From positions 1,446,048 through 1,510,047 of the forward strand of contig JAYPQE010000003.1 of NCBI GenBank assembly GCA_038131795.1: a stretch of 64,000 nt of DNA, in the 5' to 3' direction. Shown in pieces: positions 15,539 through 40,658 of the stretch (positions are counted from its first letter, which is position 1; the number at the start of each line of letters is the position of its first letter). A program made the translations under genes and the position numbers. Under the pieces are notes generated by a model. That model saw only the letters and a program-made list of their open reading frames with translations, did no database searches and had not been told where the DNA came from. The DNA is from Candidatus Eutrophobius brisbanensis (lineage in GTDB: Bacteria > Pseudomonadota > Gammaproteobacteria > Eutrophobiales > Eutrophobiaceae).

Positions 15539-17137
15539 TTATTGAGGCTGAGCGGTGGCATCACCGTAATCGATGCTGATATCCCGACCAAAAAAGTTAG
15601 AATAGGCATCAGGAGTGTTCATTTCATCACGGGAAATTACTGTCGCGCCTAGCTTGACAAGTAATTCGGCTGTGTCTTCATGTACACCATATGCGCCCAC
15701 ATTATTGAAAGAGGGGGCAATACCCATAGACATACTCCACGCAGTCTCACCATTGGTATTTCTGGCATCCACCTCGGCACCGTGATCGACGAGATACTGA
15801 ACAACATTGGTGGTCCCGGTAAACGCGGCTTTGTGTAATGCAGTTTCACCATCTTCATTGACCTCGTTAACATCAACTCCCTGGGCCAGAATGGCCTTGA
15901 CAGCTTCCAGGGCCCGCGCCCTTTTTGCAGGGGAGGTATTGTCCTCCTGGTTCATACCGGTACAGGATGACCGGGCAGCCACCATTAATGGGGTATTGCC
16001 ATTTTTGGTGGTGATGGTCGCGTCTGCCTCGTATTTACTCAACATTTGTAGTAATTCTGCATCAGCGGAAACGGCGGCCAGGAAATAAGGTGTCGCACCC
16101 ACCATATTACTGACACTTTCACAGGAACTTCTAATGGCCGGTCCAATTAAATAACTCTTCTCAATCTGTGCATTGGGATCGGCACCGGCGTCCAACAGGG
16201 CCTTGACCAATTTAGGCTGGTTGCTTGGGCGAACCCGGTAGGAAGGATCATAGGTAATGCCATGCATGTACGACAGACCGTTCTGATGGGCATGATGCAG
16301 GGCCGTTACTCCATTCTCATCTTTGGATTCATGATCGGCACCGGACTTAAGAAGAAAAATTGCCAGATCTTCGTGACCGCTGGCAGTGGCGATTACCAGC
16401 GGGTTTCCGTATTCAGCTGTTGCTTCATTGATATTGGCACCGGCATCAAGTAACAAGCTTGCGGTTTCAATATCACCGGCACGGGCAGCATACATCATTG
16501 CAGTAAATCCACCGGGCGAGGGTTTCCATTCACATATACGACAGGTATTGGGAACTCGTTCCTCTGACGGTAAGGTTTTTGGAGAAATATCAGCACCGTG
16601 CTCCAATAACAACCGGGTGATTTCAGCGTAACCACCTGCAGCCGCCCACATTAGCGGTGTCTGCCCCATTTTGTTTTCAGCTACATTCGGATTGGCACCG
16701 GCTTTCAATAACGCCGCCACAGCATCGGTGGTCCCGGTACGAACACAATCCATAAGCAAGGTTTCACCTGACCATTTTTCGGCATTGGCATCGGCACCGG
16801 CATCCAGCAAAATCTTCACCACTTCACTGTTGCGGTTGGTGCAGGCCAGGGATGCAGGCGTTACACCATACACGTTCTCCGCATCCGGGTCTGCGCCTTT
16901 CTTTACCAGTGCTTTAATCGTATCGATATCATTCCGATGCACAGCGTAGTGTAATGCCGTTGTGCCATCTGCTTTCTTGCTATTGACATCAAGCTTTGAT
17001 TTCAGCATTGCCTGAATAATTTCCGAATCACCTTTCTTAACGGCATTGATAAATTCCATTCCGGAATCTGCAAGTACTGTTGTAGAAATGGCTGAAAACA
17101 GAAATACTGATAATGCATTTCGTAAAGACTGGTTCAT
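15539..17137 (-). CDS. Secreted ankyrin-repeat protein (third gene of module 1)
   Basis: Multiple 33-aa ANK repeats (e.g. DGTTALHYAVHRNDIDTIKALVKKGADPD). I placed the start at the ATG at 17137, which begins a signal peptide (MNQSLRNALSVFLFSAISTTVLA) and is preceded by the Shine-Dalgarno sequence GGGAGA. The ORF track extends to 17188. It is paralogous to 30033-31514 and 35450-36931. Confidence 0.8.
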   Translation of the reverse strand: MNQSLRNALSVFLFSAISTTVLADSGMEFINAVKKGDSEIIQAMLKSKLDVNSKKADGTTALHYAVHRNDIDTIKALVKKGADPDAENVYGVTPASLACTNRNSEVVKILLDAGADANAEKWSGETLLMDCVRTGTTDAVAALLKAGANPNVAENKMGQTPLMWAAAGGYAEITRLLLEHGADISPKTLPSEERVPNTCRICEWKPSPGGFTAMMYAARAGDIETASLLLDAGANINEATAEYGNPLVIATASGHEDLAIFLLKSGADHESKDENGVTALHHAHQNGLSYMHGITYDPSYRVRPSNQPKLVKALLDAGADPNAQIEKSYLIGPAIRSSCESVSNMVGATPYFLAAVSADAELLQMLSKYEADATITTKNGNTPLMVAARSSCTGMNQEDNTSPAKRARALEAVKAILAQGVDVNEVNEDGETALHKAAFTGTTNVVQYLVDHGAEVDARNTNGETAWSMSMGIAPSFNNVGAYGVHEDTAELLVKLGATVISRDEMNTPDAYSNFFGRDISIDYGDATAQPQ

Positions 17138-17168
17138 AAGGTCTCCCTGCTCTGTCTCTCGTAATTGT

Positions 17169-18506
17169 TTATGATACGGACAAGGCATTCAACGTGCCTG
17201 TACTGTCACCAAAGTTCTCGATTTCCAGACCGAGCTTATCTAACAAGGTCAGGTAAAGATTGCTGATTGGTGTGTCATCCGTATAGCGGATATGTTTACC
17301 ACCTTTCAATTGACCTGATCCGCCGCCAAAGAGAATACATGGCAGGTCTTGCAACAGATGATCATTACCATCACTCATTGAACATGCATACATGAGCATC
17401 ATATTATCCAGCAGGTTTCCTTCGATATCAGGGGTTGAGGCCAGTTTATCGAGGTAATGGACCATTAACTCTGAGTGATAAAGGTTAATCTTGTACAGTT
17501 TCTCCAGGCTGATCTCATTGCCCTGGTGGTGTGACAGAGAATGGTGAACGTCTGGCACGCCAATCTCAGGATAGGTGCGGTTACTCTGCTCCGGTCCCGT
17601 CATCAAGGTAATCACCCGGGTCATGTCCGTTTGATAGGCCATAACATTGAGATCAAACATCAATTTCAGGTGCTCGGCAAAATCTTCCGGGATTCCGGCC
17701 GGTGGTGATTCCAGTGACAGGCCCTGGCCCGTCTGTTGCTCGGCCAGTTCGATTCGATGTTCGATATCACGCATGCCGTCCATATATTCTGTCAGTCTCA
17801 GCTTGTCTTCTGGACTGACCTGTTTCATCAGGTCTTTCGCTGCCTCACTGACTGAATCCAGGATGCTCTGCTCTTTCTTGATCCGTTCCAGTCTCATGGC
17901 AGGATTGGTGCTGTCGCCAAAAAGGCGCTCGAAGACAGCACGTGGACGGTTTTCGATCGGCAGTGGCTGGGTGGGTGTCTTCCAGGAAAGGGTACTGATA
18001 AAGGCGCAGCTCCAGCCCTTCTCACATTGACCCACGGCATCGCTGCTGTGCAGGCCCAGTTCCAGTGACGCCAGCTGGGTCTTTTTACCCAGTTCCTGTG
18101 CAGCAATCTGGTCGATTGACGTTCCTACCACGCCCTCCCGTTTGGGATGAACACCCGTGAGGAATACCGCACCGGCACGTTCGTGGGGTGCCGATTCACC
18201 TTCACCAGGTTTGGCATAGCCCTCCATATTGGCCATACCACTTAGGACGGTCATTCTGTCCTTGTACGCCGCCAATGGCTGCATGATGGGTGTCAGTTCA
18301 TAGTTCGTACCTGTTTCCGTGGGTGTCCATTTAGTCATGTTCATGCCATTCGGTGCATAAACAATGGACAGCCTTCTTGGTATCTCTGCCCGATCTTTGA
18401 CAGATGCCAATGCAGGAAACATGGCATCCAGGACCGGCAAGGCGATGCTTGCACCCGCGCCTTTTAAAAATGTCCTTCTGGGGATAGATTTCTTAAATAT
18501 CAACAC
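17169..18506 (-). CDS. DUF1552 (HXXSHH) family protein with a Tat signal (second gene of module 1)
   Basis: Tat motif SIPRRTFLKGAGASIALPVLDA and the HXXSHH motif (DVHHSLSHH). GTG start, preceded by GAGGAGGG. It overlaps the upstream gene by 14 nt. Confidence 0.8.
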   Translation of the reverse strand: MLIFKKSIPRRTFLKGAGASIALPVLDAMFPALASVKDRAEIPRRLSIVYAPNGMNMTKWTPTETGTNYELTPIMQPLAAYKDRMTVLSGMANMEGYAKPGEGESAPHERAGAVFLTGVHPKREGVVGTSIDQIAAQELGKKTQLASLELGLHSSDAVGQCEKGWSCAFISTLSWKTPTQPLPIENRPRAVFERLFGDSTNPAMRLERIKKEQSILDSVSEAAKDLMKQVSPEDKLRLTEYMDGMRDIEHRIELAEQQTGQGLSLESPPAGIPEDFAEHLKLMFDLNVMAYQTDMTRVITLMTGPEQSNRTYPEIGVPDVHHSLSHHQGNEISLEKLYKINLYHSELMVHYLDKLASTPDIEGNLLDNMMLMYACSMSDGNDHLLQDLPCILFGGGSGQLKGGKHIRYTDDTPISNLYLTLLDKLGLEIENFGDSTGTLNALSVS

Positions 18507-20901
18507 GGTCCGGGACCCTCCTCGTTTGATAAGATGAACTGTTTACAATGGCAACAACCAGAGACGGCAGGCTGTGTTGCTCGGCCTTTGTCTCCTCAAT
18601 AATTGATCTGATTATAGGTGCATCGGTATGGCGAATTTCCCTGCCCAATGCATAGGTGAGCATTTTTTCAACCAGGGTAAAGGTAAAGTCATACTGCCTT
18701 TTTTCACTGAGCACCTGTTTGAGCTCTGATGGTCCTTCAAATGCTGTTCCATCTGGCAGGGCGCCTGTGGAATTAATAGGTGCAGCTGATTCACCATCAA
18801 CTGTTCGCCATTTACCAATGGCGTCAAAGTTTTCCAGGGCAAACCCCAGTGGATCCATGATCTTGTGGCAACTGGCACAAACTGGGTTTGCGCGGTGCAT
18901 TTCCATACGTTCGCGCATGGTCAATATCACACCTGCTTCGTTTTTGTCCTGTAGTCCTGGGACATCATTTGGCGGTGGCGGTGGCGGTACACCCAGTATG
19001 TTCTCCAGAATCCACTTGCCGCGTATAGTCGGTGCGGTGCGGTTGGCATAGGACGTCACCGTCAGGATGCTTCCCTGGCCCAGTAATCCACCACGGCCTT
19101 CACCATCCAATGCTACTTTACGAAAATGGTTTCCAAAGATACCGTCGATTCCATAGTGACCCGCAAGCCTTTCATTTAGAAAGGTGTAGTCAGCCGTCAA
19201 CATTTCCATTAACGGGCGTTCTTCACGCATGATATGGTCGATAAACAACTCAGTCTCTGTACGAAAAGCCTCTCTCAAGTTATCGTCAAAATACGGGAAG
19301 ATATCGATGTCCGGTGCAGCCACATTCAATTTCCCAAGTGTCAGCCATTGGGAGGCGAAGTTTTTCACCAGGGCAATCGAGCGCGGGTCATCAAGCATAC
19401 GCCTGACCTGCTTTTCCAGAACTTTCGGGTCGTTTAACTCACCTGACTCGGCCGCGGCCAGGAGTTCCTCATCAGGAATACTGCTCCAGATAAACAATGA
19501 CAGGCGGCTTGCCAATTCGAGATCGGGTAAATCATAAATCTCACCTTTAGCCACGTTCACAGGGACTTTTTCGGTAATAAATAAAAACTCAGGTCCTGCC
19601 AGCATTCTTTCGATGGCAACACCGATGCCCTGTTCAAATCCACCATTGGCAACTCCCTGGTCAAAAAATCCCATCAAGACGTCAACTTCTTTTACGGTGG
19701 GTGACCGACGGTAGGCCTTGCGTGCCAGGGACGAAAGGATGGCCCTGGCACAATCTGTGTCCTGGTTATTTTGCGGACTGCAGATAAGAATTTTTTCCCT
19801 GCTCGCTGTCTCCCCCGGACCGCGAACCTCATAGGGACCGCCTATGGCAATGGTCCGAACACCAGGATTCCCTCCCTTAAACTGGGTGTAGTCGTACATG
19901 GTATGGTCAGGAATTAGTGGCCCTTCCGGTAAAAATATATCTTGCAAGAAAGAAGCAGTAATCAACTGTTCACCGGCCTTTGCAGTAAACCGCACTTCAA
20001 GGTCCTGATCGGAATAGCGTTCATAGGCCTCCTGCCTGATATCCCCCTGTGCCGAGGTGGAATACAACTGGGATGATTTACCGAATTTCTGTCCGCCTAC
20101 GGTATACAGCTTCAAGCGTTCATCATTCATCCGAATATCAAGCTGGTGCGGCCGGTTGGTCATCCCGCGAATATAGTCGCGGTAGTTTCGCTGCAGCCTG
20201 ACCTGGATCACATACTCACCATCCATGGGAAAATGATGCCGAACTGCCATGCCTCCACGGGAACCAAACGGCATGTCTTCATTCATGCGCTCGTCCTGCT
20301 TTAAGGCCTGGGGTAATGTGTAATATTCAAATGCAGGTGTGATATCAGGATCACCCAGGGCCTGGTTACGGACCTTACGTGCAGCGGCAATATAGCGCTC
20401 AATCAATAACGGTGACAGGGTCAATACACCGCCGATGTTATCAAAATTGAACATGATGGCATCAGGTGGCAATAAGGTGTCACCATTGATGTCTACCGCA
20501 AACAGATCCCGGATGGCATTGACATACTCTGTCCTGTTCAGGCGCCGCATGGACGGCCTGCCAGGCTCAGGATTTTGTCTGGCGTGTCGGTTCAGGCCAT
20601 TTTCAAGGAAGCTGACAAAAGATTCATAGGTGGCTTCATCTGGTCTTGGCATGCCCGATGGCGGCATGGCCTTGGCACGCAATTTACGTAACACCTTCTC
20701 CCAGCTTTCACCATCAGCACCCAGATTGCTGGTATCAACTTGCTGTAGACTAAATGCCGCTGTCTTTAATGTATCGTTATGGCAACCAACACAATATTGG
20801 TTGACCGTATCTTGATAAAACCCGGCATCCTGTTGTGCCAGGACTGAGTTTGAAATAAGTAGCAGCGCGCTGCCCAAGAATGCGATAAGACCTTTTACCA
20901 T
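18493..20901 (-). CDS. Secreted DUF1587/DUF1592/DUF1595/DUF1588/DUF1585-type protein with two CxxCH motifs (first gene of module 1)
   Basis: Signal peptide, N-terminal CVGCHND and C-proximal CASCHKIMDPLGFALENFD motifs, and a G/P-rich linker (PPPPPP). It is 802 aa long. The family is planctomycete-type and typically pairs with DUF1552. Confidence 0.8.
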   Translation of the reverse strand: MVKGLIAFLGSALLLISNSVLAQQDAGFYQDTVNQYCVGCHNDTLKTAAFSLQQVDTSNLGADGESWEKVLRKLRAKAMPPSGMPRPDEATYESFVSFLENGLNRHARQNPEPGRPSMRRLNRTEYVNAIRDLFAVDINGDTLLPPDAIMFNFDNIGGVLTLSPLLIERYIAAARKVRNQALGDPDITPAFEYYTLPQALKQDERMNEDMPFGSRGGMAVRHHFPMDGEYVIQVRLQRNYRDYIRGMTNRPHQLDIRMNDERLKLYTVGGQKFGKSSQLYSTSAQGDIRQEAYERYSDQDLEVRFTAKAGEQLITASFLQDIFLPEGPLIPDHTMYDYTQFKGGNPGVRTIAIGGPYEVRGPGETASREKILICSPQNNQDTDCARAILSSLARKAYRRSPTVKEVDVLMGFFDQGVANGGFEQGIGVAIERMLAGPEFLFITEKVPVNVAKGEIYDLPDLELASRLSLFIWSSIPDEELLAAAESGELNDPKVLEKQVRRMLDDPRSIALVKNFASQWLTLGKLNVAAPDIDIFPYFDDNLREAFRTETELFIDHIMREERPLMEMLTADYTFLNERLAGHYGIDGIFGNHFRKVALDGEGRGGLLGQGSILTVTSYANRTAPTIRGKWILENILGVPPPPPPNDVPGLQDKNEAGVILTMRERMEMHRANPVCASCHKIMDPLGFALENFDAIGKWRTVDGESAAPINSTGALPDGTAFEGPSELKQVLSEKRQYDFTFTLVEKMLTYALGREIRHTDAPIIRSIIEETKAEQHSLPSLVVAIVNSSSYQTRRVPDRVDI

Positions 20902-24261: not shown

Positions 24262-24263
24262 TT

Positions 24264-28791: not shown

Positions 28792-28799
28792 TACATATT

Positions 28800-29444
28800 C
28801 TATTTCGCTTTATTCTGATACTTTGGATCAGCATATTTATCCATGGCCGAGATCCTTTTGATTATTCCTTTTTCCAGTAATAATTGAGATATTTGCCGGT
28901 ATCCATCCGGACTGAGAGTACCGTACCTGACGATGCCATGCTTTACAAAGGCCTCATAGCCCCCATTGAGGGTATCCCTTTTATCACCTCCGATATTCAC
29001 GGCAATATCCATGGCCTCTTCCCGGTTGGCCTCATCAAGCAACCATTCCGTAGCTCGGATATATGCTGTTAAGTACTTCACAAGTATATCTTCATTAGCT
29101 TCAGCCCAGTCCCTGCGTGTGGCAATGGAAGAGGCAGGAAACTCTGGATAATGTTCTGACAGACTGGTCAGCCGGGTATAGCCTTCGGCTTCAATACTGG
29201 CGGGTGGGTTCATATAGGTCACGTCGGCCCTACCCTCACGCAGGACTTGCATGCGCATTGCCGGACCACCGGAATTGGCAATTACCTGATAGTCGCCTGG
29301 GTTGACCCCATTTGCTCTCAGAACTTTATCAAACATTAACCAGTAACTGACATTCAGATTTGCCAGGGCAAAAGTTTTGCCTCTTAGATCGCGATAAGAT
29401 TTGATACCAGGACCAACCAACAGGTCATTTGTCGCCTCTTTCAA
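28800..29444 (-). CDS. ABC-type substrate-binding protein (NMT1/SsuA-like), C-terminal segment of a split gene
   Basis: It starts in a region homologous to the end of the ORF at 29508-29909 (SYRDLRGKTFALA compared with SYEDLRGKTIALL) and continues through the second lobe of the binding protein. Confidence 0.5.
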   Translation of the reverse strand: MKEATNDLLVGPGIKSYRDLRGKTFALANLNVSYWLMFDKVLRANGVNPGDYQVIANSGGPAMRMQVLREGRADVTYMNPPASIEAEGYTRLTSLSEHYPEFPASSIATRRDWAEANEDILVKYLTAYIRATEWLLDEANREEAMDIAVNIGGDKRDTLNGGYEAFVKHGIVRYGTLSPDGYRQISQLLLEKGIIKRISAMDKYADPKYQNKAK

Positions 29445-29507: not shown

Positions 29508-29909
29508 CTAATTGAACAGTAGCAGGGCGATTGTCTTCCCCCTGAGATCTTCATAACTGTCATATTTCGGTCGCACGATTAAATCATTGGCCGCGCGGGT
29601 GATGGTATGCAGGATAACGTATTCTTTTCCGTCTTCTATCTCGCGTACAAAATGATCAGCCGCCTGATGGAAGATCTCCAGCTGCTCAGAATCCACCATA
29701 TCCAGCTGGTGTTCCGATTCACCCGTTACTGTGACCTGGACATCAAGCCCTTCAGCATCAAAGAAACCTTTAGATTCAGCAATCCATAATGGCCAGTTAT
29801 TGATGGACTGGCTGATAGTACCAACACGGATAGTCTGGGCAGATAATCCAGACGACAGAAAGGAAAAACAAATTAAAAATCCAGCACACAAAATATCGTG
29901 CATTTTCAT
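29508..29909 (-). CDS. ABC-type substrate-binding protein (NMT1/SsuA-like), N-terminal segment with signal peptide
   Basis: Signal peptide and the first lobe, ending just after the DLRGKT motif. A stop follows, then a 63-bp gap before the next ORF. Confidence 0.5.
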   Translation of the reverse strand: MKMHDILCAGFLICFSFLSSGLSAQTIRVGTISQSINNWPLWIAESKGFFDAEGLDVQVTVTGESEHQLDMVDSEQLEIFHQAADHFVREIEDGKEYVILHTITRAANDLIVRPKYDSYEDLRGKTIALLLFN

Positions 29910-30032: not shown

Positions 30033-31514
30033 TTACTGGCCTGGCGGCGGTGGGGCATTGGAATCCATCGCATCCCGGCTGGTGGTATTGGCACCAAGTT
30101 GTTCAAGGAGTTTGGCCGTACTTTCATGATAGCCGTAAAGACCTCGATACCTGAGCACAGGACTTATGCCGGACGCCATGCTCCAGGGGGTTTCCCCATA
30201 GTTATCTGTTACATTGATGTCAGCCCCCATCTCAGCAAGATATTTGACCACCATATCATTTCCGGTAAATGCCGCCATATGCATAGCAGTCTGGCCTTCT
30301 TCATTTTTAGCGTCAATATCAATCCCTATTTCAACAACAGCCTTCACGGCTTCAAAGGATTTCTGAATGTCCTTATCATTGGCCTGGTTGCCACCTTTAA
30401 AGGCACACGCCCCGGTACATGCGGCGCGGGCTGCCGCCATTAACGAGTTAATCCCGCCCTTTGCAGCAATATTCTGATCTGCTTCATACGATTTGAGCAT
30501 TTCCATCATCTGGATATCGGCAGAAATGGATGCAAGTAGAAAGGGGGTTGCCCCGACCATATCAAAAGGGCTACCGTCCGGCCCAAGGCGTTTACTTTTT
30601 TTGATCTGAATATTCGGATCAGCGCCTGCCTCAAGAAGAGCATGTACTAACCTGTGTAAATTATCAGGGATTTGTCTGTATACGGGGTCATAACGGACAC
30701 CATTCAAGGCGGCCATACCACTCGCCATGGAATGATGCAGCGCAGAAATACCATTTTCATCCGTCGCATCCGGGTCTGCTCCCACACTCAACAGATATAG
30801 CCCCAGGTCTTCATGACCTCCTGCAGCGGTGATAACCAGTGCAGTCCCATACTCTGGCGTAGATTCATTGGGATCGGCACCTGCATCTATGATTGCCCGG
30901 GCTGAAACAACATCACCGGAACGGGCGGCAAACAGCAGTGGCGTAAACCCGGAACTCGATCTGGCGTGGATATCTGCACCATGTTCCACCAGCAGCTGAC
31001 TGATTTCACCATGACCTTCTGCCGCTGCCCACATAAGGGCCGTTTGGTCCTTCTTGGTTTCCTTTGCATTTGGATCAGCGCCTTTTGCAAGTAGTGCAGC
31101 AACTGCCTCCGTTGCCCCAGTCTTGGAACAATTCATCAATACAGTTTCACTACTCCACAATGCAGCATTAGGGTTGGCACCAGCAACAAGCAGTTTTTTT
31201 GCCAACTCATTATTACGATTAGTGCAGGCAAGATATAAAGGTGTTACTCCATAATCATTTGTCGCATTAACATCAGCATCAGCAAACAGCAACTTTTCAG
31301 AAATCTCCATGTCATTTCGATGAACCGCCCAATGTAATGCGGTGGTCCCATCTGCCTCTGCTTGATTGATGCCTGCAGATTGACCAATCAATTCGCCCGC
31401 TGCTGCAGAGTCTCTCCTTTTAACTGCATCGATCAATGGATGGTCGCCAACAGCATATGCGGGCGCCGTTATAATACAAATTAAAATATATCGGTATAAC
31501 CAGTTCATCATCAA
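30033..31514 (-). CDS. Secreted ankyrin-repeat protein (third gene of module 2)
   Basis: Signal peptide plus ANK repeats. It shares the ACTGxC...GGNQ block with its paralogs. Confidence 0.8.
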   Translation of the reverse strand: MMMNWLYRYILICIITAPAYAVGDHPLIDAVKRRDSAAAGELIGQSAGINQAEADGTTALHWAVHRNDMEISEKLLFADADVNATNDYGVTPLYLACTNRNNELAKKLLVAGANPNAALWSSETVLMNCSKTGATEAVAALLAKGADPNAKETKKDQTALMWAAAEGHGEISQLLVEHGADIHARSSSGFTPLLFAARSGDVVSARAIIDAGADPNESTPEYGTALVITAAGGHEDLGLYLLSVGADPDATDENGISALHHSMASGMAALNGVRYDPVYRQIPDNLHRLVHALLEAGADPNIQIKKSKRLGPDGSPFDMVGATPFLLASISADIQMMEMLKSYEADQNIAAKGGINSLMAAARAACTGACAFKGGNQANDKDIQKSFEAVKAVVEIGIDIDAKNEEGQTAMHMAAFTGNDMVVKYLAEMGADINVTDNYGETPWSMASGISPVLRYRGLYGYHESTAKLLEQLGANTTSRDAMDSNAPPPPGQ

Positions 31515-31522
31515 AATTCCTT

Positions 31523-32860
31523 TTATACGTTTAACAGATTGACCAATCCGATACTGTCACCAAACTTTCCTTCCTGCACACCCAGTTTGTCCATAATCGT
31601 CAGGTATAGATTTGAAATGGGTGTCTCATCCGGATACCTGATGTGCTGGTTACCTTTCAATTGGCCTGAACCGCCACCCACCAGCATGATGGGCAGGTTC
31701 TGCAGCAGATGCTCATTACCATCACTCATGGCGCTGCCGTACATAACGATCATATTGTCCAGCAGGTTTCCTTCTATATCCGGTGTTGCCCTTAACTTAT
31801 CCAGGTAGTATGAGAATAACTGTGTGTGATAGACATCAATCTTGGCAATCTTCTCCAGAAATACAGGGTCATTCCGGTGGTGTGACAGGGAATGATGTAC
31901 ATCGGGAATACCGATTTCTTCATAGGTTCTGTTGCTCTGTTCGGGACCGGTCATAAAGGTAATCATTCGGGTCATATCCGTCTGGAAGGCCAATACCTGC
32001 AGGTCGTACATCAGTTTCAGGTGGTCGGCAAACTCTGATGGCACACCAGAAGGTCTTTCAAAGGAAGGGATTTCTCTGCCGGATTGTTGCTCGGCCAGCT
32101 GGATACGCCTCTCCACATCACGCATACCCTCCATATATTCAGTAAGACGGGACTTGTCCTCCACACCAACCTTTTTCATTAAACGGTTGGTCGCATCGGT
32201 CACCGAATCAAGGATACTCTGCTCTTTTTGAATACGTGCAAGCCTGATTGCAGGGTCAGTGCTACTATTGTCCCCGAATAATCTCTCAAACACGGCCCGT
32301 GGTCGGTACTCTATGGGTAATGGGGTGGTTGGAGACCGCCAGCTCAGTGTCATACGATAGGCGCAGCTCCAGCCTTTTTCACAACTCCCTACCACGTCTG
32401 TATTGTGTAGCCCCAGTTCCAGAGAGGCCAGCTGGGTTTTCTGCCCAAGTTCCCGCGCAATGATCTGATCTACAGACGTACCAACATGACCTTCTCTTAA
32501 TGGATGGACCCCGGTCAGGAAGACACCACCGGCCCTTTCGTGAGGTGCTGATTCACCTTCACCGGGTAACGCGTCCCCCTCACTATTATTCATCCCACCA
32601 AGCACCAGCATCTGGTCCTGAAAGGCGGCAAGTGGTTGCATGGTCCGGGGTAATTTGAAACCTGCCCCGGTCTGTTCCGGCGTCCAGTACTGCATGTTCA
32701 TTCCATTGGGAGAATAGACAATGGAAAAACGCCTGGGTATCTCTGCCTGTTTTCCAGCCGCAAGTGCTGGAAACATGGCATCCATCACTGGCAATGCAAT
32801 GCATGCGCCTGCACCACGAAGGAATGTACGGCGAGGTATGGATCGTTTAAATATCATCAT
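31523..32860 (-). CDS. DUF1552 (HXXSHH) family protein with a Tat signal (second gene of module 2)
   Basis: HHSLSHH motif and a Tat motif. I placed the start at ATGATG (32860), which is preceded by AGAGGAGGG. The ORF track extends to 32902. Confidence 0.8.
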   Translation of the reverse strand: MMIFKRSIPRRTFLRGAGACIALPVMDAMFPALAAGKQAEIPRRFSIVYSPNGMNMQYWTPEQTGAGFKLPRTMQPLAAFQDQMLVLGGMNNSEGDALPGEGESAPHERAGGVFLTGVHPLREGHVGTSVDQIIARELGQKTQLASLELGLHNTDVVGSCEKGWSCAYRMTLSWRSPTTPLPIEYRPRAVFERLFGDNSSTDPAIRLARIQKEQSILDSVTDATNRLMKKVGVEDKSRLTEYMEGMRDVERRIQLAEQQSGREIPSFERPSGVPSEFADHLKLMYDLQVLAFQTDMTRMITFMTGPEQSNRTYEEIGIPDVHHSLSHHRNDPVFLEKIAKIDVYHTQLFSYYLDKLRATPDIEGNLLDNMIVMYGSAMSDGNEHLLQNLPIMLVGGGSGQLKGNQHIRYPDETPISNLYLTIMDKLGVQEGKFGDSIGLVNLLNV

Positions 32861-35255
32861 GGCCGGGGGCCCTCCTCTTCTTAAACGGTGTACTCTCAAC
32901 AATCTCCAGGATCATCGAGGTAAGTTTGTAATCATTTTTTGCAGATTGCTTCAATATGGAACGCATAATAGGGGCGTCACGGTAATCCACTCCCCTGCCC
33001 AGTGCATAGGTCATCAACTTTTCAATGGAAGTCAGAACAAAATCCTCATAACGATTTTCTACCAGGACTTCCTTTAATTGAGCCATCCCTTCAAATGGCG
33101 TGCCGTCAGGTAATGCGCCAGTTGCGTCGATGGCAGAATCTGAAGCAGCGTCCACTAATCGCCATTTACCTATGGCATCATAGTTTTCCAGTGCAAACCC
33201 AAGGGGGTCCATGATCTTATGACAGCTTGCACATACCGGGTTGGCACGGTGCTGTTCCATCTGCTGACGCATATTCAGGACCTTGCCCTGTTCATTGGTG
33301 TCTTTGAGCGCAGGGATATTCGCCGGCGGTGGCGGTGGTGGTGCTCCAAGAATATTTTCCAGTACCCATTTCCCCCGTATGGTGGGGGCTGTCCTGTTGG
33401 GATAGGAAGTCAATGTCAGGATGCTGCCCTGGCCAAGCAGGCCTCCACGTGATGCGTCGGGCAGGTTCACCTTTCTGAAGTGGCTGCCATAAACACCGGG
33501 TATTCCATAGTGTCTCGCCAGTCGCTCATTCACGAAGGTATAGTCGGCATTGAGCAATTCCAGTACAGAACGATCATTCCTGAAGATATAATCGAAGAAA
33601 AGTTCAGTCTCTTTCTGAAAGGCCTGCCTAAGATTATCTTCGAAATAAGGGAACAGATCCGTGTTAGGTGCAGCTGCGTTTAAATTACCCAACTGCAGCC
33701 ATTGCGAGGCAAACTTCGATATGATGACTTCGGATCTGGGGTCTGACAGCATTCGCCTGACCTGTCCTTCCAGAACTTCCCGGTCTGATAACCTTCCGGC
33801 TTCGGCCAGGGCCAACAACTCATCATCGGGAGAAGACCGCCACAGGAAAAAGGATAATTCACTGGCGAGTTCCAGGTCTGAAATACTGAATATCTCGCCT
33901 GGCTTCACATCATCAGGACGATCAACAATGACAAACAGGAATTCAGGCCCTGCCAGCATACGTTCCATGGCAAGACCAATCCCTTCTTCAAAACTGGTGG
34001 ATTTCCCCTGGTGATAAAAGCCCATCAGGTCTTCCACTTCCTGGTTTGTTGGCGGCCTGCGATATGCCCTGTGAGCAAGGCTGGAAATAATTTCTTTTGC
34101 ACACTCTGCATCATTATTGTTTTTTGGCTTACATATTAGAATCTTGTCACGGCTTTCGGTCTGTCCAATACCTTTTGCATTATAGGGACCGCCTACGGCA
34201 ACGGTATGCACAGCGGGGACCCCGCCTTTATATTGTGCGTAGTCGTATAAGGTATGTCGCGGGTATTCAGGTTCTGCCGGGATAGTGGATTCTTTCAGGA
34301 CAGTGACCGTCAATTTATGCGTGCCTGCCTTTGAAGTAAAGCGTGCCTCCAGCGCATCATCCGCTGTCCTCTCATAATGCTCCTGTTCCACATCACCCGA
34401 CGAGCCTGATGAAAAGATGCCGGCTGAGCGACCATAAGTTTCCCCACCAATCGTAATCAGTTTTATCCTTTCACCATCGAGCCTAATATCAAACTGGTAA
34501 GGCTCTGTTAGCCCCCGTATGTATTCTCTTGAATTGCGTTGTAACTTGACCTGAACCACATATTCCCCGTCCATAGGAAAGTTATGGTTGACCGAGGTTC
34601 CACCCATGGAACCAAACGGCATGTCATCTCCCATGCGGTCATCCTGCATCAGGTAACCTGAAACTGTATAGATATCAAATACCGGCTGCATTTCAGGCTC
34701 ACCCAGGGCAAGTTTCCTGACCTTTCTGGCTGCCGAGATATACTGTTCTGTCAATAACGGTGAAAGTGTTAATACTTCACCGATATTATCAAAACCGTAC
34801 ATGGTGTCATCTGAAGGTAATATCGTGTCATTGGTAATCTCTATCGCAAACAGATCTCGCACGATATTGATATATTCAGTCTTGTTTAATCTTCGTATCG
34901 TTGGACCACCCGGCCTGGGGTCTGTCATGGCAAGTGAATCCAGCGAGGTTGTAATATAACTGGCCATAGACTGGTAGGTAGAGTCATCCGGCCTCGGCAT
35001 CCCCGATGGCGGCATCGACCTGGCCTTTAATTTACGTAGCACTTTTTCCCAGATTTCTGCATCTTCACCAACATTACTGGCATCCACGCCTTGTAGTGAA
35101 AGCCCTGCAGTGCGCAAGGCGTCATTATGGCAACCGACACAAAATTGATTAACTGTGGCCTGGTGCTCATCACCTGCAGATGATTGCTGAGCGCTTGCTC
35201 CCATGCTGACCAACAAAGAAAAAGCGATCAGACAAATCCTGAAAGATAAGGACAT
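32847..35255 (-). CDS. Secreted DUF1587/1592/1595/1588/1585-type di-CxxCH protein (first gene of module 2)
   Basis: CVGCHND and CASCHKIMDPLGFALENYD motifs. It is 802 aa long with a signal peptide. Confidence 0.8.
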   Translation of the reverse strand: MSLSFRICLIAFSLLVSMGASAQQSSAGDEHQATVNQFCVGCHNDALRTAGLSLQGVDASNVGEDAEIWEKVLRKLKARSMPPSGMPRPDDSTYQSMASYITTSLDSLAMTDPRPGGPTIRRLNKTEYINIVRDLFAIEITNDTILPSDDTMYGFDNIGEVLTLSPLLTEQYISAARKVRKLALGEPEMQPVFDIYTVSGYLMQDDRMGDDMPFGSMGGTSVNHNFPMDGEYVVQVKLQRNSREYIRGLTEPYQFDIRLDGERIKLITIGGETYGRSAGIFSSGSSGDVEQEHYERTADDALEARFTSKAGTHKLTVTVLKESTIPAEPEYPRHTLYDYAQYKGGVPAVHTVAVGGPYNAKGIGQTESRDKILICKPKNNNDAECAKEIISSLAHRAYRRPPTNQEVEDLMGFYHQGKSTSFEEGIGLAMERMLAGPEFLFVIVDRPDDVKPGEIFSISDLELASELSFFLWRSSPDDELLALAEAGRLSDREVLEGQVRRMLSDPRSEVIISKFASQWLQLGNLNAAAPNTDLFPYFEDNLRQAFQKETELFFDYIFRNDRSVLELLNADYTFVNERLARHYGIPGVYGSHFRKVNLPDASRGGLLGQGSILTLTSYPNRTAPTIRGKWVLENILGAPPPPPPANIPALKDTNEQGKVLNMRQQMEQHRANPVCASCHKIMDPLGFALENYDAIGKWRLVDAASDSAIDATGALPDGTPFEGMAQLKEVLVENRYEDFVLTSIEKLMTYALGRGVDYRDAPIMRSILKQSAKNDYKLTSMILEIVESTPFKKRRAPGHDDI

Positions 35256-35449
35256 TTAAAACCCCCGGTTTTTAAGACATAACAATTCGATATATACACG
35301 AGTAAGTATATAGCCTTTAATCTGAAAAATTAACTGAAACCCCTGGGTGACTTATGAAATTTCCGTGCATTTTCCCAGAGAAATGGGGGCTTGAATGAGA
35401 ATTACTCTCATATCCGAAAAAGCAACTGACTGTAATCAGGACGGGTGGT

Positions 35450-36931
35450 TTATTGGCCTGGAGGGGGCGGCGAACGATCGTCCATCTGGTCACGGGTGAC
35501 TACTTTTGCCCCCAGCTTACGCAATAATGCTGCTGTGCTTTCGTGGTTGCCGTACAGGCCCTGGTAACGGATCACCGGGCTGATTCCGGATGCCATACTC
35601 CAGGGGGTTTCTCCATAATTATCAGATACGTTTACCTCGGCGCCCTGATCATATAAATACTGGACAATTTCATCGGCACCAATAAATGCCGCCATGTGCA
35701 TTGCCGTTTGACCTTTTTCGGTCCTGGCATTGACGTCCACTCCCATCTCAACCGCTGTTTTCACTGCCTCCAGGGCTAGGCGACTTCTCTCACTATCTGA
35801 CTGGTTGCCCCCCTGAAAGGTACAGGACCCGGTACAGGCGGCCTGGGCTGCAGCGATTAACGGAGTAATACCTCCCTTTGCCACCAGACTGGGATTCGCT
35901 TCATATTCAGCCAACAGATTCATAAGTTCAACATCTGATGACAGGGCGGCAAGCATTAAAGGCGTGGCATAGGTCATCTCAAAGGCACTGCCGTCCGGGC
36001 CTAGCCTATGGCTTTTTTGAATCTGGGCATTAGGATCGGCACCGGCTTCAAGCAGGCTTTTAGTCAACCCCTGCATGTTCTTGGGCCTTACCCTGTACAC
36101 TGAATCGTAACGGACGCCATTGACAGTGGACATGCCATTACGAATGGAGTTATGCAATGCAGTGACGCCGTATTCATCGCCCGAATCGGGATTGGCCCCT
36201 TGTTGTAGTAAATATATAGACAATGCTTCATGACCACTGGCACTGGCAATCACCAGGGTGTTTCCCTGCTCTGGTGTACTTTCATTGGGGTTGGCGCCGG
36301 CTTCTATGAGATGCTTAGCCGTTTCAACATCACCCGATCGCGCGGCAAATAACAATGGTGTGAATCCATTATTCGATACTGCCTTTATATTAGCCCCATT
36401 GTCCAACAGTTGATGGACGACATCGGCGTGCCCCCCTGCTGCTGCCCACATGAGTACAGTCTGGCCTTTCTCTGTTTCACTTGCGTTAACATCTGCGCCG
36501 GCATTAATCATTGCGATGACTGCATCTGTTGCCCCTCTTTTCGCACAGTTCATCAAGGGGGTCTCACCAGACCAGAGGGCAACATTGGGGTTTGCCTTTG
36601 CCTTCAATAATATCCCTACCATTGCTGAACTCTTATTGGTACAGGCCAGATACAATGGTGTAATACCATAGTCATTGGCGATATTGACATCGGCCTTTTG
36701 TCGTACGAGCAGTTTAGCCAACTCCAGGTTGTCCCAGTGAGCCGCCCAGTGCAGCGCAGTGGTCCCATCATTATGGGCGGTATTTACATCCAGGCCATCG
36801 GCTTTAAGCAACACAGTGAACTTATCATTATCATTTTGTTTTGCAGCCTCAACCAATGGGGGAAGAGATGAGGCGATACTCACATATGTAATGCTGGAGA
36901 TGAGTAAAAACAGTAAAAATTTAATGTTCAT
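35450..36931 (-). CDS. Secreted ankyrin-repeat protein (third gene of module 3)
   Basis: Signal peptide plus ANK repeats. It is a paralog of 30033-31514. Confidence 0.8.
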   Translation of the reverse strand: MNIKFLLFLLISSITYVSIASSLPPLVEAAKQNDNDKFTVLLKADGLDVNTAHNDGTTALHWAAHWDNLELAKLLVRQKADVNIANDYGITPLYLACTNKSSAMVGILLKAKANPNVALWSGETPLMNCAKRGATDAVIAMINAGADVNASETEKGQTVLMWAAAGGHADVVHQLLDNGANIKAVSNNGFTPLLFAARSGDVETAKHLIEAGANPNESTPEQGNTLVIASASGHEALSIYLLQQGANPDSGDEYGVTALHNSIRNGMSTVNGVRYDSVYRVRPKNMQGLTKSLLEAGADPNAQIQKSHRLGPDGSAFEMTYATPLMLAALSSDVELMNLLAEYEANPSLVAKGGITPLIAAAQAACTGSCTFQGGNQSDSERSRLALEAVKTAVEMGVDVNARTEKGQTAMHMAAFIGADEIVQYLYDQGAEVNVSDNYGETPWSMASGISPVIRYQGLYGNHESTAALLRKLGAKVVTRDQMDDRSPPPPGQ

Positions 36932-36934
36932 AGG

Positions 36935-38275
36935 CTAGGCCGTCTCAATATCCAGGCGACCCGTGCTGTCTCCAAATGACTCCAGGTGCACACCCAGTTT
37001 GTCTAACAGGGTAAGGTACAGATTGGCAACCGGTGTCTTCTCCTGGTACCTGATGTGGATGCCACCATTTAGCTGACCTGCACCGCCACCGATAACAACC
37101 AGTGGCAGGTTTTGCATGAGGTGGTCGTTGCCATCACTAATGCCACTGCCATACAGGACAATGATGTTATCCAGCAATGTACCTTCCATATCCGGGGTGT
37201 CAGCCAGGCGGTCCAGATAATATCGCATTAACTCCATGTGATAATTATCTATTTTCTTAAGCTTGCCGAGTTTTTCAGGGCTACCCTGGTGATGGGAAAG
37301 GGAATGATGCACGTCAGGGATTCCAATCTCCTTGTAGGTGCGGTTACTCTGTTCCGGCCCCATCATAAAGGTAATGATACGGGTCATATCCGTCTGGTAC
37401 GCCAGTACCTGTAAATCAAACATTAATTTAAGGTGATCGGCAAAATTTGCCGGGACACCTGAAGGGCGTTCCACGGTTGGAATCTCACGGTCTGATTGCT
37501 GCTCAGCCATCTGGATCCTGCGTTCCACATCCCGCATTCCATCAAGGTATTCTGTAATCCTGACCCGGTCCTGGGGACCTACTTTCTTCATCATCCTTGA
37601 GGCGGCATCAGTTACCGCATCCAAAAGGCTCTTGTCTTTCTCTAACCTGGCCATCCGTACTTTGGGATCGGTGCTGTTATTATCACCAAATAACCTTTCA
37701 AATACTGCCCGGGGACGGTATTCAATGGGTAATGGTGTGGTGGGATTACGCCATGACAGGGTGTTCATAAAGGCGCAACTCCAACCTTTTTCACAGTGAC
37801 CGGTGACATCTGTTGAATGTAAACCCAGTTCCAGTGAGGCCAGCTGGGTATGTTGTCCAAGTTCCCTGGCAACGATTTGATCAACTGATATACCCGTCTC
37901 TCCGTAACGCAATGGATGCACACCGGTCAAAAATACACCACCTGCTCGTTCATGGGGTGCAGTTTCACCTTCCCCAGGTAGCGCATCACCTTCATTATTG
38001 TCCAACCCGGTGAGGACATGCAACTTGTCTTTATATTTTGCTATCGGTTCAAGAGAAGGACTTAATTCAAAATTTCTACCCGTAGCCTCAGGTGTCCACT
38101 GGGACATGTTCATACCATTAGGGGTATAGATGATAGAGAACCGGTTTACCTGGTCATGTTTATCTTTCGCAGCAGCCAGGGCGGGCACCATGGCATCGAG
38201 AAACGGTAATGCAATACTTGCACCGGTACCTTTGAGAAATGTTCTACGATCAATAGCTTTTTTAAATATCATCAT
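36935..38275 (-). CDS. DUF1552 (HXXSHH) family protein with a Tat signal (second gene of module 3)
   Basis: HHSLSHH motif. The start is at ATGATG (38275), preceded by GAGGAGGG. The ORF track extends to 38314. Confidence 0.8.
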   Translation of the reverse strand: MMIFKKAIDRRTFLKGTGASIALPFLDAMVPALAAAKDKHDQVNRFSIIYTPNGMNMSQWTPEATGRNFELSPSLEPIAKYKDKLHVLTGLDNNEGDALPGEGETAPHERAGGVFLTGVHPLRYGETGISVDQIVARELGQHTQLASLELGLHSTDVTGHCEKGWSCAFMNTLSWRNPTTPLPIEYRPRAVFERLFGDNNSTDPKVRMARLEKDKSLLDAVTDAASRMMKKVGPQDRVRITEYLDGMRDVERRIQMAEQQSDREIPTVERPSGVPANFADHLKLMFDLQVLAYQTDMTRIITFMMGPEQSNRTYKEIGIPDVHHSLSHHQGSPEKLGKLKKIDNYHMELMRYYLDRLADTPDMEGTLLDNIIVLYGSGISDGNDHLMQNLPLVVIGGGAGQLNGGIHIRYQEKTPVANLYLTLLDKLGVHLESFGDSTGRLDIETA

Positions 38276-40658
38276 GGCTGACGGCCCTCCTCGTCTGGAA
38301 AGGTGTACTTTCAACGATTGCTGTAATTAAAGAAGAAATCTTGTGTTTGTCATTTTTGGTCTTGCGCATAATCTCACGCATCGTGGCGGCATCCCGGTAA
38401 TTGACCTCTCTCCCCAACCCGTACGTCAGGATCTTTTCAACAAAGGTCAATATAAAATCTTCGCTGCGTTTTTCCAGAATGACCTCTTTGAGACCAGCAG
38501 GACCTGAAAATGGGGTACTGTCCGGCAATTCACCTGAGGGGTCAATGACTGAATCAGATGCAGCATCAACCGTCCGCCATTTGCCGATACCATCGTAATT
38601 TTCCAGGGCAAACCCAATGGGATCCATGACCTTGTGACAACTGGCACAGACCGGGTTGGCGCGGTGCTGTTCCATCCGCGCGCGCATGGACAACACCTTA
38701 CCCTGGTCATTTTTATCTCTTAATCCGGGTACATTAGGTGGCGGTGGTGGGGGGGGGGATCCCAGCAGGTTCTCCAGCACCCATTTACCCCGAATCACCG
38801 GTGATGTCCGGTTTGCATAGGAAGTAATGGTGAGTATGCTGCCCTGCCCCATCAGGCCACCCCTTGCCCTATCATCCAGATAGACCTTTCTAAAATGACT
38901 GCCATGAACATCCGGGATCCCATAAAAATTGGCCAGGCGTTCATTGACAAATGTATAGGGCGCATCAAGCATTTCCAGCAATGGTCGATCCTGCTTAATA
39001 ATATAATCAACAAACAACTCAGTTTCCTTTTTGAATGCGGCCCGCAAATTATCATCAAAATAAGGAAATAATTCAGTATCAGGCGCGACGGCATTTAACC
39101 GCCCGAGGTTTAGCCACTGCAGGGCAAAGTTATTCAACAGTGCATCGGCACGTGGATCATTTAACATCCGTTGTACCTGCTGGTTTAACACCTTTGAATT
39201 CTGGATTTTTCCGGACTCGGCTAATGCCAGTAATTCGTCGTCGGGGAAACTGCTCCAGATAAAAAGTGCTAATTTGGTTACCAGTTCATTAGGAGAGATT
39301 TTGAATGTTTCACCCTCTGCCAGACTACCTGGTTGTTCCTCGAGTATGAACAGGAATTCCGGTCCAGCGAGTATCCTTTCAACAGCCAGGCCGATCCCCT
39401 CATCAAAACTACCTTCTGACTGGCCGCGTTTAAAAAATGCCATTAATTCCTGCATCTCGCCATCCGCGGGCTGCCGCCTGAAGGCACGGGTTGCCAGTTT
39501 TCTCAAAATAGATTCCGCACATTTCACATCGTTGATACTCGATGGTTTGCAGCTATAAATCATTTCCCGGCTGATTGTCTCGGCCATGCCATCTCGATTA
39601 AATGGTCCGCCCACTGATACGGAGCGAATACCCGGCAATCCGCCCTTGTACTGTGAAAAATCGTAATTGGTATGCTTGGGATAGACAGGGGTTTCTGCGA
39701 TGGAATTATCTTTCAGGAACGTGGCAACAACCTGATGATACCCGGCTTCACTATAAAACCTGACATATAAAGCATCATCTGCAGACCGTTCATAATGCTC
39801 CTGGGCAATATCACCCTGCGATGCGGTGGAAAAGATCCCGGAAGATCGTCCATGCTTTTCGCCACCTATGCTAATCAGATCTAGTTGCTTGCCATCAAGA
39901 CGAAAATCTACCTTATGCGCGTAATCCTGAAGACCACGTATATAGTCCCGGGAGTTACGTTGTAATCGTACCTGAATTTCATATTCACCATTGGCCGGGA
40001 AGTAATGTTGTACCGCAATGCCTCCACGGGAACCAAAAGGTAGATCTTCACCCAGTCGTTCTTCCTGGCGTGTGTTATTTGTTAAGGTATATATTTCATA
40101 GACAGGTTGAATATTAGAATCGCCCAGGGCCTGCCGCCTGACCTTTCTTGCCGCGGCGATATATTGTTCCGTCAATACCGGTGACAAGGTCAAGACATTA
40201 CCTATATTGTTAAACCCGAACATAATATCATCCGGTGGTAATAAGGACTCTTCCTCGATCTCAACACCCAACAGGTCACGAATAACGTTGGCATACTCGG
40301 TCCGGTTAATCCTGCGCATTGCGGCACGGCCCGGTTGCGGATTGGCTCTGGCATAGTCATCCAGTCCACTTTCCAGAAATTGTGAAAAACCATTATAGGT
40401 TTCAGCATCTGGCCTGGGCATACCTGATGGAGGCATGGATCGTACTTTTAATTTACGTAAAACCTTCTCCCACTTCTCAGCACCGCCGCCTAAATCGCGG
40501 GTATTCACATCCTGTAATGTTAACCCCGCGGTTTTCAACTGGTCGTTATGACAAGTTACGCAATACTGATCCACCACTGACTGGTATTTTTCAGCCAGCG
40601 ACTGGGCTGAGCATGTCACGCTCAATATAGATAGTAGTATGAAATAGTAGATACGCAT
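38262..40658 (-). CDS. Secreted DUF1587/1592/1595/1588/1585-type di-CxxCH protein (first gene of module 3)
   Basis: CVTCHND and CASCHKVMDPIGFALENYD motifs. It is 798 aa long. Confidence 0.8.
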   Translation of the reverse strand: MRIYYFILLSILSVTCSAQSLAEKYQSVVDQYCVTCHNDQLKTAGLTLQDVNTRDLGGGAEKWEKVLRKLKVRSMPPSGMPRPDAETYNGFSQFLESGLDDYARANPQPGRAAMRRINRTEYANVIRDLLGVEIEEESLLPPDDIMFGFNNIGNVLTLSPVLTEQYIAAARKVRRQALGDSNIQPVYEIYTLTNNTRQEERLGEDLPFGSRGGIAVQHYFPANGEYEIQVRLQRNSRDYIRGLQDYAHKVDFRLDGKQLDLISIGGEKHGRSSGIFSTASQGDIAQEHYERSADDALYVRFYSEAGYHQVVATFLKDNSIAETPVYPKHTNYDFSQYKGGLPGIRSVSVGGPFNRDGMAETISREMIYSCKPSSINDVKCAESILRKLATRAFRRQPADGEMQELMAFFKRGQSEGSFDEGIGLAVERILAGPEFLFILEEQPGSLAEGETFKISPNELVTKLALFIWSSFPDDELLALAESGKIQNSKVLNQQVQRMLNDPRADALLNNFALQWLNLGRLNAVAPDTELFPYFDDNLRAAFKKETELFVDYIIKQDRPLLEMLDAPYTFVNERLANFYGIPDVHGSHFRKVYLDDRARGGLMGQGSILTITSYANRTSPVIRGKWVLENLLGSPPPPPPPNVPGLRDKNDQGKVLSMRARMEQHRANPVCASCHKVMDPIGFALENYDGIGKWRTVDAASDSVIDPSGELPDSTPFSGPAGLKEVILEKRSEDFILTFVEKILTYGLGREVNYRDAATMREIMRKTKNDKHKISSLITAIVESTPFQTRRAVSHDDI

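Follow-up and report, generated by a model that had tools for sequence, protein, structure and literature searches.

A three-gene module pairing a di-haem cytochrome and a DUF1552 protein with an exported ankyrin-repeat protein in Candidatus Eutrophobius brisbanensis and other bacteria

Within a 64,000-nucleotide stretch of the genome of the gammaproteobacterium Candidatus Eutrophobius brisbanensis (assembly GCA_038131795.1, contig JAYPQE010000003.1, positions 1,446,048 to 1,510,047 of the forward strand; the whole of this stretch is referred to as the window), three genes recur together in three copies: one for a di-haem c-type cytochrome (A), one for a DUF1552/HXXSHH protein (B) and one for an exported ankyrin-repeat protein (C). 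The triad is inherited as a unit. It is best regarded as a cytochrome-DUF1552 pair to which an obligatory exported ankyrin partner has been added, and which has branched into several paralogues per genome. Because the three predicted exported proteins are co-produced and co-inherited, they almost certainly act together in the periplasm.

Three paralogous modules in the window

The listing of open reading frames (ORFs) places three co-directional A-B-C modules on the minus strand, M1 at 20901-15539, M2 at 35255-30033 and M3 at 40658-35450, with M3 and M2 in direct tandem across a gap of 194 nt, in agreement with an earlier reading of the same DNA made from the sequence by itself (the initial annotation), whose background of recA, alaS and aspartate kinase genes was likewise confirmed. 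Nine ORFs in such an order and with such domains cannot be a chance pattern. The genes are listed below, with aa for amino acids and with Sec and Tat for the general secretory and twin-arginine translocation pathways.

M3 gene A, 38262..40658, minus strand: 798 aa; N-terminal cytochrome c domain, PSD3, beta-sandwich, PSD5, PSD4, PSCyt3 and PSD2 (Pfam); predicted Sec export
M3 gene B, 36935..38275, minus strand: 446 aa; DUF1552/HXXSHH protein with predicted Tat export and predicted alkaline-phosphatase-superfamily fold
M3 gene C, 35450..36931, minus strand: 493 aa ankyrin-repeat protein with family-specific Cys pairs and a PPPPGQ tail (Pfam Ank and family alignment); predicted Sec export
M2 gene A, 32847..35255, minus strand: 802 aa (Pfam); CxxCH at residues 39 and 675
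M2 gene B, 31523..32860, minus strand: 445 aa from the ATG at 32860 (the ORF reaches a TTG at 32902); Pfam, 310 bits
M2 gene C, 30033..31514, minus strand: 493 aa ankyrin-repeat protein (Pfam and alignment)
M1 gene A, 18493..20901, minus strand: 802 aa (Pfam); CxxCH at residues 37 and 675
M1 gene B, 17169..18506, minus strand: 445 aa, GTG start; Pfam, 306 bits, and TAT_signal
M1 gene C, 15539..17137, minus strand: 532 aa from the probable start at 17137 (the ORF reaches 17188); ankyrin-repeat protein of a variant subclade (Pfam)

With the starts supported by the family (MMIFK/MLIFK), A and B overlap by 14 nt in all three modules, and GAGGAGGG precedes each B start, inside the 3' end of A. The M2 B start, MMIFKRSIPRRTFLRG, matches the family alignment, and the longer TTG-initiated B ORFs of 459 aa are probably over-extended. 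The gaps between B and C run from 3 to about 31 nt, M3 C beginning 3 nt past the B stop codon. Of the start coupling first proposed, the 14-nt overlap is retained and extended to every module. For M1 C, the start at 17137 (MNQSLRNALS...), which would give a signal peptide that lines up with the family, is most likely, rather than that at 17188. As markers of operon boundaries, promoter-like and terminator-like sites are not enriched, at 22 against 19.9 and 13 against 10.6, respectively, in shuffled sequence.

The paralogues are 58-60% identical to one another in A, 65-71% in B and 51-57% in C at the amino acid level, and 62-70% at the DNA level, values that show C to be more diverged than the early estimate of 60-70%. 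In locus L002, the M3 orthologue is the first module (A 91%, B 93%, C 87%) and the M2 orthologue the second (A 84%, B 87%, C 83%), both in the order seen in the window and adjoining the same flavoprotein gene, and modules of the M1 type occur in L012 (Woeseiaceae), L024 and L025, with M1 A identities of 70-72% in L012 and L024. Each module being closer to its orthologues in other genomes, the duplications predate the divergence of these lineages. L001, a related MAG (metagenome-assembled genome), has a module of a fourth type (11027-16249; identity to M3 about 65/72/57%) between its M3 and M2 orthologues, which indicates that array copy number varies among relatives. The view that these are maintained paralogues was thus borne out, and a recent duplication or an assembly artefact, which the tandem of M3 and M2 might bring to mind, is effectively excluded by the low DNA identity among copies, by the nearer orthologues that every paralogue has elsewhere, and by an independent assembly of the same sequence (L015) with an identical junction.

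Constancy of the ankyrin partner

A scan of genomes anchored on B, with one genome per species and genes mapped by tblastn, yielded nine loci, eight of which carry A-B-C: seven are gammaproteobacterial loci from MAGs, several of them with tandem arrays, and one comes from an Acidimicrobiia MAG with an ankyrin protein of no more than 34% identity; the ninth, from a Verrucomicrobiales MAG, is a lone B. A B-anchored scan of metagenomes with a diverse B alignment returned 80 loci (B 51-81% identical). The order is A-B-C in 37 of them, C is divergent and just upstream of A-B in 11, and it is convergent downstream in one; no C is seen downstream in 11 where the contig is cut upstream, 20 are too short to tell, and none is readable on both sides and devoid of C. 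C was therefore found in 49 of the 49 metagenome loci that can be read on both sides. When the search was anchored on C, A-B adjoined it in five of five independent look-ups as well as in the window's own sequence, the carriers including an Acidobacteria MAG and Woeseiaceae MAGs. An ankyrin gene confined to this one genome had been named beforehand as an outcome that would refute the initial annotation, and the genome and metagenome counts clearly show the opposite.

The divergent arrangement of C falls into at least two separate sequence clusters that are interleaved with co-directional modules, so that the adjacency of the three genes has survived independent rearrangements. Across 44 complete modules, A, B and C show correlated patterns of pairwise identity (matrices compared at r = 0.88-0.89); none of 500 label permutations in an A-C Mantel test reached the observed value, and the nearest neighbour is identical for A, B and C in 34 modules. 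Even modules whose B is only 42-49% identical to the window (L008 and the second modules of L026, L035 and L039) keep C. In L008, the Acidimicrobiia locus, an extra DUF1552 gene (7938-9347) follows directly after the triad and has neither an A nor a C of its own. Two of the seven gammaproteobacterial loci, with a triad about 80% identical (L003 and L004; CAMDWI010000008.1 and CAMBTO010000019.1), are labelled Klebsiella pneumoniae, a label that is probably wrong.

This distribution bears on another implication of the initial annotation, that the pair is an oddity in a gammaproteobacterium. Members of this clade abound in Gammaproteobacteria (Woeseiaceae among them), Acidobacteria and Acidimicrobiia, and the oddity disappears; 'planctomycete-type' is only a historical Pfam name.

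The three proteins and their possible function

Hidden Markov model (HMM) searches bore out all domain calls of the initial annotation, for the DUF1592-type, DUF1552 and ankyrin proteins alike. In the A proteins of M1, M2 and M3, PSD3/DUF1587, PSD5/DUF1595, PSD4/DUF1592, PSCyt3/DUF1588 and PSD2/DUF1585 follow one another in this order, all above the Pfam gathering score (60-163 bits; cut-offs 23-34), and are preceded by a Cytochrome_CBB3-like domain that is present in all three and exceeds its gathering score in M2 and M3 only. Each A has exactly two CxxCH motifs (CVGCH or CVTCH, and CASCH; residues 33 and 671 in M3) and a classical Sec signal peptide, as C does, in keeping with the description of the first gene as encoding a secreted di-haem protein of about 800 aa. 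Among 59 homologues, C33, C36, H37, C671 and H675 of the haem motifs never vary, and 90% or more have C674; M75-P76-P77, the Cys pair C370/C380 and a PPPPPP stretch are also invariant, and the M-P-P segment has a sequence typical of an axial Met ligand region. The AlphaFold2 model of M3 A has a confidence score (pLDDT) of 78, and analogues in the PDB were found for the central beta-sandwich only, which resembles carbohydrate-binding modules (CBMs) of families 6, 35 and 36. An A profile had no match at all among PDB sequences, NCBIfam offered no model for A or B, and neither the CCP_MauG domain nor the fold of bacterial di-haem cytochrome c peroxidase/MauG was found in A. The PPPPPP stretch lies at residues ~635-640 (window ~38740-38760 in M3), and C ends in APPPPGQ; these poly-proline elements may be docking motifs.

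All three B proteins match HXXSHH/DUF1552 (PF07586) at 306-320 bits, against a cut-off of 30. The HxxSHH motif is found in 71 of 71 aligned sequences of the B family and reads HSLSHH in the window, and the N-terminus, (S/A)I(P/D)RRTFL(K/R)G, includes a textbook twin-arginine motif (RRTFLKG or RRTFLRG, residues 10-16) that makes B a predicted Tat substrate, with Pfam TAT_signal falling below its gathering score (18-19 bits against 22.7). The second gene is accordingly the DUF1552 Tat protein with an HHSLSHH motif that had been recognised at the outset. The core of B is predicted to adopt the alpha/beta fold of the alkaline-phosphatase superfamily, and its structural neighbours are without exception hydrolases or transferases. 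When compared with members of that superfamily (nucleotide pyrophosphatases/phosphodiesterases, type I sulfatases, phosphonate monoester hydrolases and LtaS/EptA-type transferases), however, B is only 8-14% identical and has no HMM-level match. A sequence search of the PDB gave nothing meaningful; at E = 10, Pfam returned DUF1552 alone, with Sulfatase not matched; and profile-profile comparison with a genuine sulfatase (hhalign) gave a probability of 0.4% and no usable alignment. The C/S-x-P-x-R...LTG formylglycine signature of type I sulfatases occurs in none of the 71 B-family sequences; B has instead the invariant, His-rich HxxSHH, and it is paired with a cytochrome.

Some 30 polar residues of B, including His, Asp and Arg, are invariant down to ~40% identity (61-71 sequences), among them N53, H108, R110, D132-Q133, the pair C161/C167, D296, R299, R312, H323-H324-x-x-S327-H328-H329 and H385. 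By secondary-structure position, N53 directly follows the first beta-strand and H108-x-R110 opens the helix after the second. The residue after this first strand, which we take to occupy the position of the metal-binding Asp of the superfamily, is an invariant Asn in B. We read the conserved residues as a putative modified metal or ligand site.

The C proteins match Ank, Ank_2, Ank_3, Ank_4 and Ank_5 at 100-220 bits and, at 490-530 aa with a Sec signal, are the secreted ankyrin-repeat proteins of about 500 aa first described. The family alignment contains blocks foreign to ordinary ankyrin repeats, namely ACTN, MNC, AACTGxCAFxGGN, GETPWSMASGISP...YGxHxST (in full, GETPWSMASGISPVLRYRGLYGxHxST) and the APPPPGQ tail, and these conserved non-repeat blocks show that C forms a specialised family, unlike generic repeat proteins. 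The best 120 homologues of C are all full-length, at ~500 aa. A search of the C-terminal 164 residues against a library of 1.84 billion representatives was swamped by giant ankyrin proteins that matched 10-39 times, and gave no usable family count. The ACTGxC and GGNQ blocks, once thought common to the ankyrin proteins of all three modules, are confined to those of M2 and M3. M1 C lacks the second Cys of ACTGxC, the GGN and the PPPPGQ tail in the alignment, and its subclade has an extra CxxC-containing insertion (NTCRICEWK) in common with P0102, P0107, P0119 and P0120.

What such a set of proteins does can be outlined conditionally. We infer a physical complex in which A, exported by Sec, would be a c-type cytochrome carrying two haems in covalent linkage, the first in a class-I-like domain at the N-terminus and the second in the C-terminal PSCyt3/PSD2 region, with the CBM-like beta-sandwich and a large helical body between them; A would give or take electrons through its haems, and the beta-sandwich may bind substrate. 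B would be folded in the cytoplasm, exported by Tat, and act as the catalytic metalloprotein, an alkaline-phosphatase-superfamily core from which the usual nucleophile motif is missing and in which the invariant His-rich set H108, H323/H324, S327, H328, H329 and H385 would be in its place. C would be a Sec-exported, disulfide-stabilised ankyrin solenoid serving as a scaffold or assembly factor that holds or matures A-B. As a whole, the complex would most likely carry out a reaction coupled to haem, and hence redox, on an organic compound that has been imported, and the paralogous modules, three or four to a genome, would differ in specificity. The entire package, a periplasmic, three-subunit, haem-linked metalloenzyme complex with C as its dedicated binding subunit, strikes us as having an even chance of being right. 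A bolder version is doubtful. It would make the triad a periplasmic oxidoreductase of a new class, the alkaline-phosphatase fold of DUF1552 having given up a hydrolase role to become a metal redox centre with His ligands, joined to the respiratory chain by a dedicated di-haem cytochrome and built upon an obligatory ankyrin subunit. If this is true, an ankyrin protein would for the first time be a structural part of an enzyme in the bacterial periplasm, and the 'planctomycete-specific cytochrome' families, uncharacterised since their definition, would gain a first hold on their function.

A number of points weigh against the three-subunit metalloenzyme. We know of no member of the alkaline-phosphatase superfamily that does redox chemistry, the proposed metal binding by B is drawn from conserved residues alone, and a B that is a hydrolase or transferase, with A doing something else, would be equally compatible with the predicted fold. 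The statistics of co-inheritance follow from physical linkage and do not prove interaction. Moreover, six independent DUF1552 contexts of the Verrucomicrobia type, with B ~40-45% identical, have no ankyrin gene within 6-8 kb; only one of them (L096) has A, in a long form (1061 aa) that contains a CBM60-like insert, and B stands by itself in the others, which suggests that B can act alone in some lineages. These contexts form a small sample of the Planctomycetes-Verrucomicrobia-Chlamydiae (PVC) type, picked as relatives of one lone Verrucomicrobial DUF1552 gene and including a single A-B pair, that of L096; that canonical PVC pairs go without an ankyrin gene follows from this thin sampling together with the silence of the literature, and the boundary of the triad is thereby only roughly placed. 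He et al. 2017 (PMC5615132) state of the pair that nothing is known of its function.

One alternative, unlikely in our view and yet to be taken seriously, keeps C out of the finished complex and makes it a transient, non-stoichiometric factor in the periplasmic maturation or stabilisation of A or B. Its precedent is AnkB of Pseudomonas aeruginosa, a periplasmic ankyrin protein needed for full activity of the haem catalase KatB (Howell et al. 2000, cited in PMC12754779). KatB-AnkB resembles the triad in that an exported ankyrin protein shares an operon with a haem protein that needs it, and it serves as the working model for C; it differs in that AnkB is much smaller and that the partner is a catalase and not a c-type cytochrome with DUF1552, and the likeness meant here is one of description. 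A transient role would also suit the pace at which C evolves, C being less conserved (mean pairwise identity 47%) than A (54%) and B (57%), and its transcription apart from A-B in 11-12 loci. However, the size of C (~470 mature residues), its strongly conserved family-specific surface blocks and tail, and the gaps of a few nucleotides by which it is mostly coupled to B, fitting equimolar production, speak for a stoichiometric subunit.

It has also to be considered whether chemistry by B is non-redox altogether. B would then be a phospho- or sulfo-ester hydrolase or transferase, A a substrate-binding or haem-sensing accessory with non-catalytic haems, and C a tether for both. Tat export, after all, also serves PhoD and PhoX, phosphatases that are not redox enzymes. 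The hydrolase and transferase character of all structural neighbours of B agrees with this, as does the CBM6/35/36-like beta-sandwich of A, and PVC-type A proteins have CBM-like inserts and genes near sulfatases (L096; He et al. 2017, PMC5615132). Nevertheless, the consistent absence of the sulfatase signature from B and the Asn presumed to stand where the superfamily has its metal-binding Asp do not fit a conventional esterase of this kind, and two conserved haem sites would be costly in a mere substrate binder, and on balance we find it rather improbable.

Neighbouring genes and related systems

No gene is a universal fourth member of the module: in a batch scan of the 73 nearest flanking genes, no Pfam family occurred in more than four. 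Two neighbours in the window are recurrent, not universal.

FAD_binding_2 flavoprotein, 40930..42789, plus strand: 619 aa, divergent from M3; flavocytochrome c/KstD-like, binding flavin adenine dinucleotide (FAD) by family (Pfam and NCBIfam); Tat motif RREFIKGAG
Pyrroloquinoline quinone (PQQ)-dependent dehydrogenase, 13446..15140, minus strand: methanol/ethanol family (Pfam and NCBIfam); predicted Sec export; ~400 bp downstream of M1 C

Homologues of the flavoprotein adjoin the triad in L001, L002, L005, L010-L014, L023 and L026, mostly close relatives, and one is found beside the triad in an Acidobacteria MAG as well; in L102 the gene beside the triad, of 700 aa, is a weak match to FAD_binding_2. 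PQQ dehydrogenases lie directly after B in L069 (5017-7173) and L078 (7477-9462) and upstream of the triad in L102 (1-129); these loci are unrelated, and the dehydrogenases may be functionally linked to the triad. PQQ dehydrogenases of the type I quinoprotein kind require a dedicated cytochrome c acceptor, and from this one could argue that A is an electron hub, gathering electrons from exported dehydrogenases encoded nearby (PQQ or FAD) and delivering them to the respiratory chain; B and C would be structural or docking components that catalyse nothing themselves. The presence of such genes beside the triad in the window and in the loci just named, about ten in the case of the Tat flavoproteins, is in keeping with a hub of this kind, as is the electron donation to lytic polysaccharide monooxygenases (LPMOs) by the cytochrome domain of Cbp2D, a protein that also has DUF1587 (PMC8981238). 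These neighbours are, however, found at a minority of loci (3-4 of the 73 flanking genes each), and many of the FAD cases are syntenic relatives and not independent events; the ~30 strictly conserved polar residues of B, HxxSHH included, speak for a catalytic or ligand site, and all this makes the hub quite unlikely. Finally, a role for C as an effector secreted at a eukaryotic host, the role commonly ascribed to most bacterial ankyrin proteins, with its adjacency to A-B incidental, recalls only some weak NCBIfam matches to Legionella Dot/Icm ankyrin effectors, in the repeats and far below cut-off, and is effectively refuted by the co-occurrence of C with A-B at every readable locus, across phyla and in soil, marine and freshwater metagenomes, by its Sec signal peptide and Cys pairs typical of periplasmic proteins, and by the lack of type IV secretion genes among the window genes scanned.

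Other genes of the window also recur around triads. Just downstream of M2 C, two minus-strand ORFs (28800-29444 and 29508-29909) encode the C- and N-terminal halves, respectively, of one NMT1/THI5-like periplasmic binding protein, and look like a split gene, frameshifted or pseudogenised; an intact NMT1 gene of 356 aa occupies the same position in L104. Three minus-strand genes for amidohydrolases or amidases lie at 21101-22861, 47383-49032 and 49815-51716; one product ends in a TIG/'choice-of-anchor Z' domain, and genes of this kind border triads in L103 and L104. Past the flavoprotein gene, before the rest of the region, an isolated gene for a GspG-like pseudopilin (42852-43346, plus strand) stands directly upstream of a divergent TonB-dependent-receptor-like gene (43449-45560, plus strand). 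The recurring neighbour classes, all of them represented in the window, are then FAD flavoproteins, PQQ dehydrogenases, amidohydrolases/amidases, NMT1-like proteins and outer-membrane proteins of the TonB or CarboxypepD_reg type; together they suggest periplasmic catabolism of imported compounds, which is only a hint. Elsewhere in the window, a gene for a DGQHR-domain protein (TIGR03187; 4363-5607, minus strand) is located in a low-GC stretch (~40% GC, 4001-6000), and a gene at 59525-61993 (minus strand) encodes an 822-aa protein with cyclic-nucleotide (cNMP)-binding and rhodanese domains and no NCBIfam model, in a region whose AT skew (-0.29) is unusually strong.

Among described systems, the closest is the pairing of PSCyt3 and DUF1552 genes on record in Planctomycetes and Verrucomicrobia as the 'Group III planctomycete-specific cytochrome' (He et al. 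2017, PMC5615132). The PVC pair has the same set of A domains with the DUF1552 partner immediately downstream, and B is ~40-45% identical between the groups; unlike it, the clade of the window has a constant exported ankyrin gene and a compact A of ~800 aa, whereas the Verrucomicrobia sampled have no ankyrin gene and mostly a lone DUF1552. Ankyrin is mentioned neither in that paper with its supplements (PMC5615132) nor in PMC2754498, subscription journals lying outside the search; this supports the initial annotation in placing the ankyrin partner outside the usual description, He et al. 2017 being the one account of the gene pair that was found. The pair formed by PSCyt2/PSD1 (DUF1549/DUF1553) and DUF1501 follows the same logic, with a 'planctomycete' cytochrome-domain protein beside a Tat-type protein (He et al. 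2017 supplement, PMC5615132), but belongs to different Pfam families, is absent from the window and has no reported link to ankyrin. A looser, partial analogue of A by description, and the nearest protein to have been studied by experiment, is Cbp2D of Cellvibrio japonicus, an extracellular redox protein with a CBM2, the c-type cytochrome domains X183 and X132, and DUF1587, which can reduce LPMOs (PMC8981238). Both are annotated with DUF1587/PSD3, have cytochrome domains with one CxxCH each and are associated with carbohydrate-binding modules, and the cytochrome domain of Cbp2D passes electrons to another enzyme; Cbp2D differs in architecture, and no DUF1552 or ankyrin partner is reported for it (PMC8981238). 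Whether a Cellvibrio CBM2-DUF1592 protein (PMC6004670) is the same as Cbp2D could not be established, Cbp2D being annotated with DUF1587 only.

Proteins of the PSCyt/PSD and DUF1552 families are abundant in environmental bacteria, with tens of copies in some Verrucomicrobia and Planctomycetes, and we found thousands of matches in Gammaproteobacteria, Acidobacteria and others. That one large clade always has a specialised exported ankyrin protein points to a complex amenable to pull-down, the B fold with its non-canonical His-rich site supplies residues to mutate, and the several old paralogues per genome suggest a family of substrate specificities. Dedicated periplasmic ankyrin proteins are rare in free-living bacteria, and the C of the triad would add to AnkB a large and widespread example. 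The triad reveals no function, yet it makes a long-standing unknown testable.

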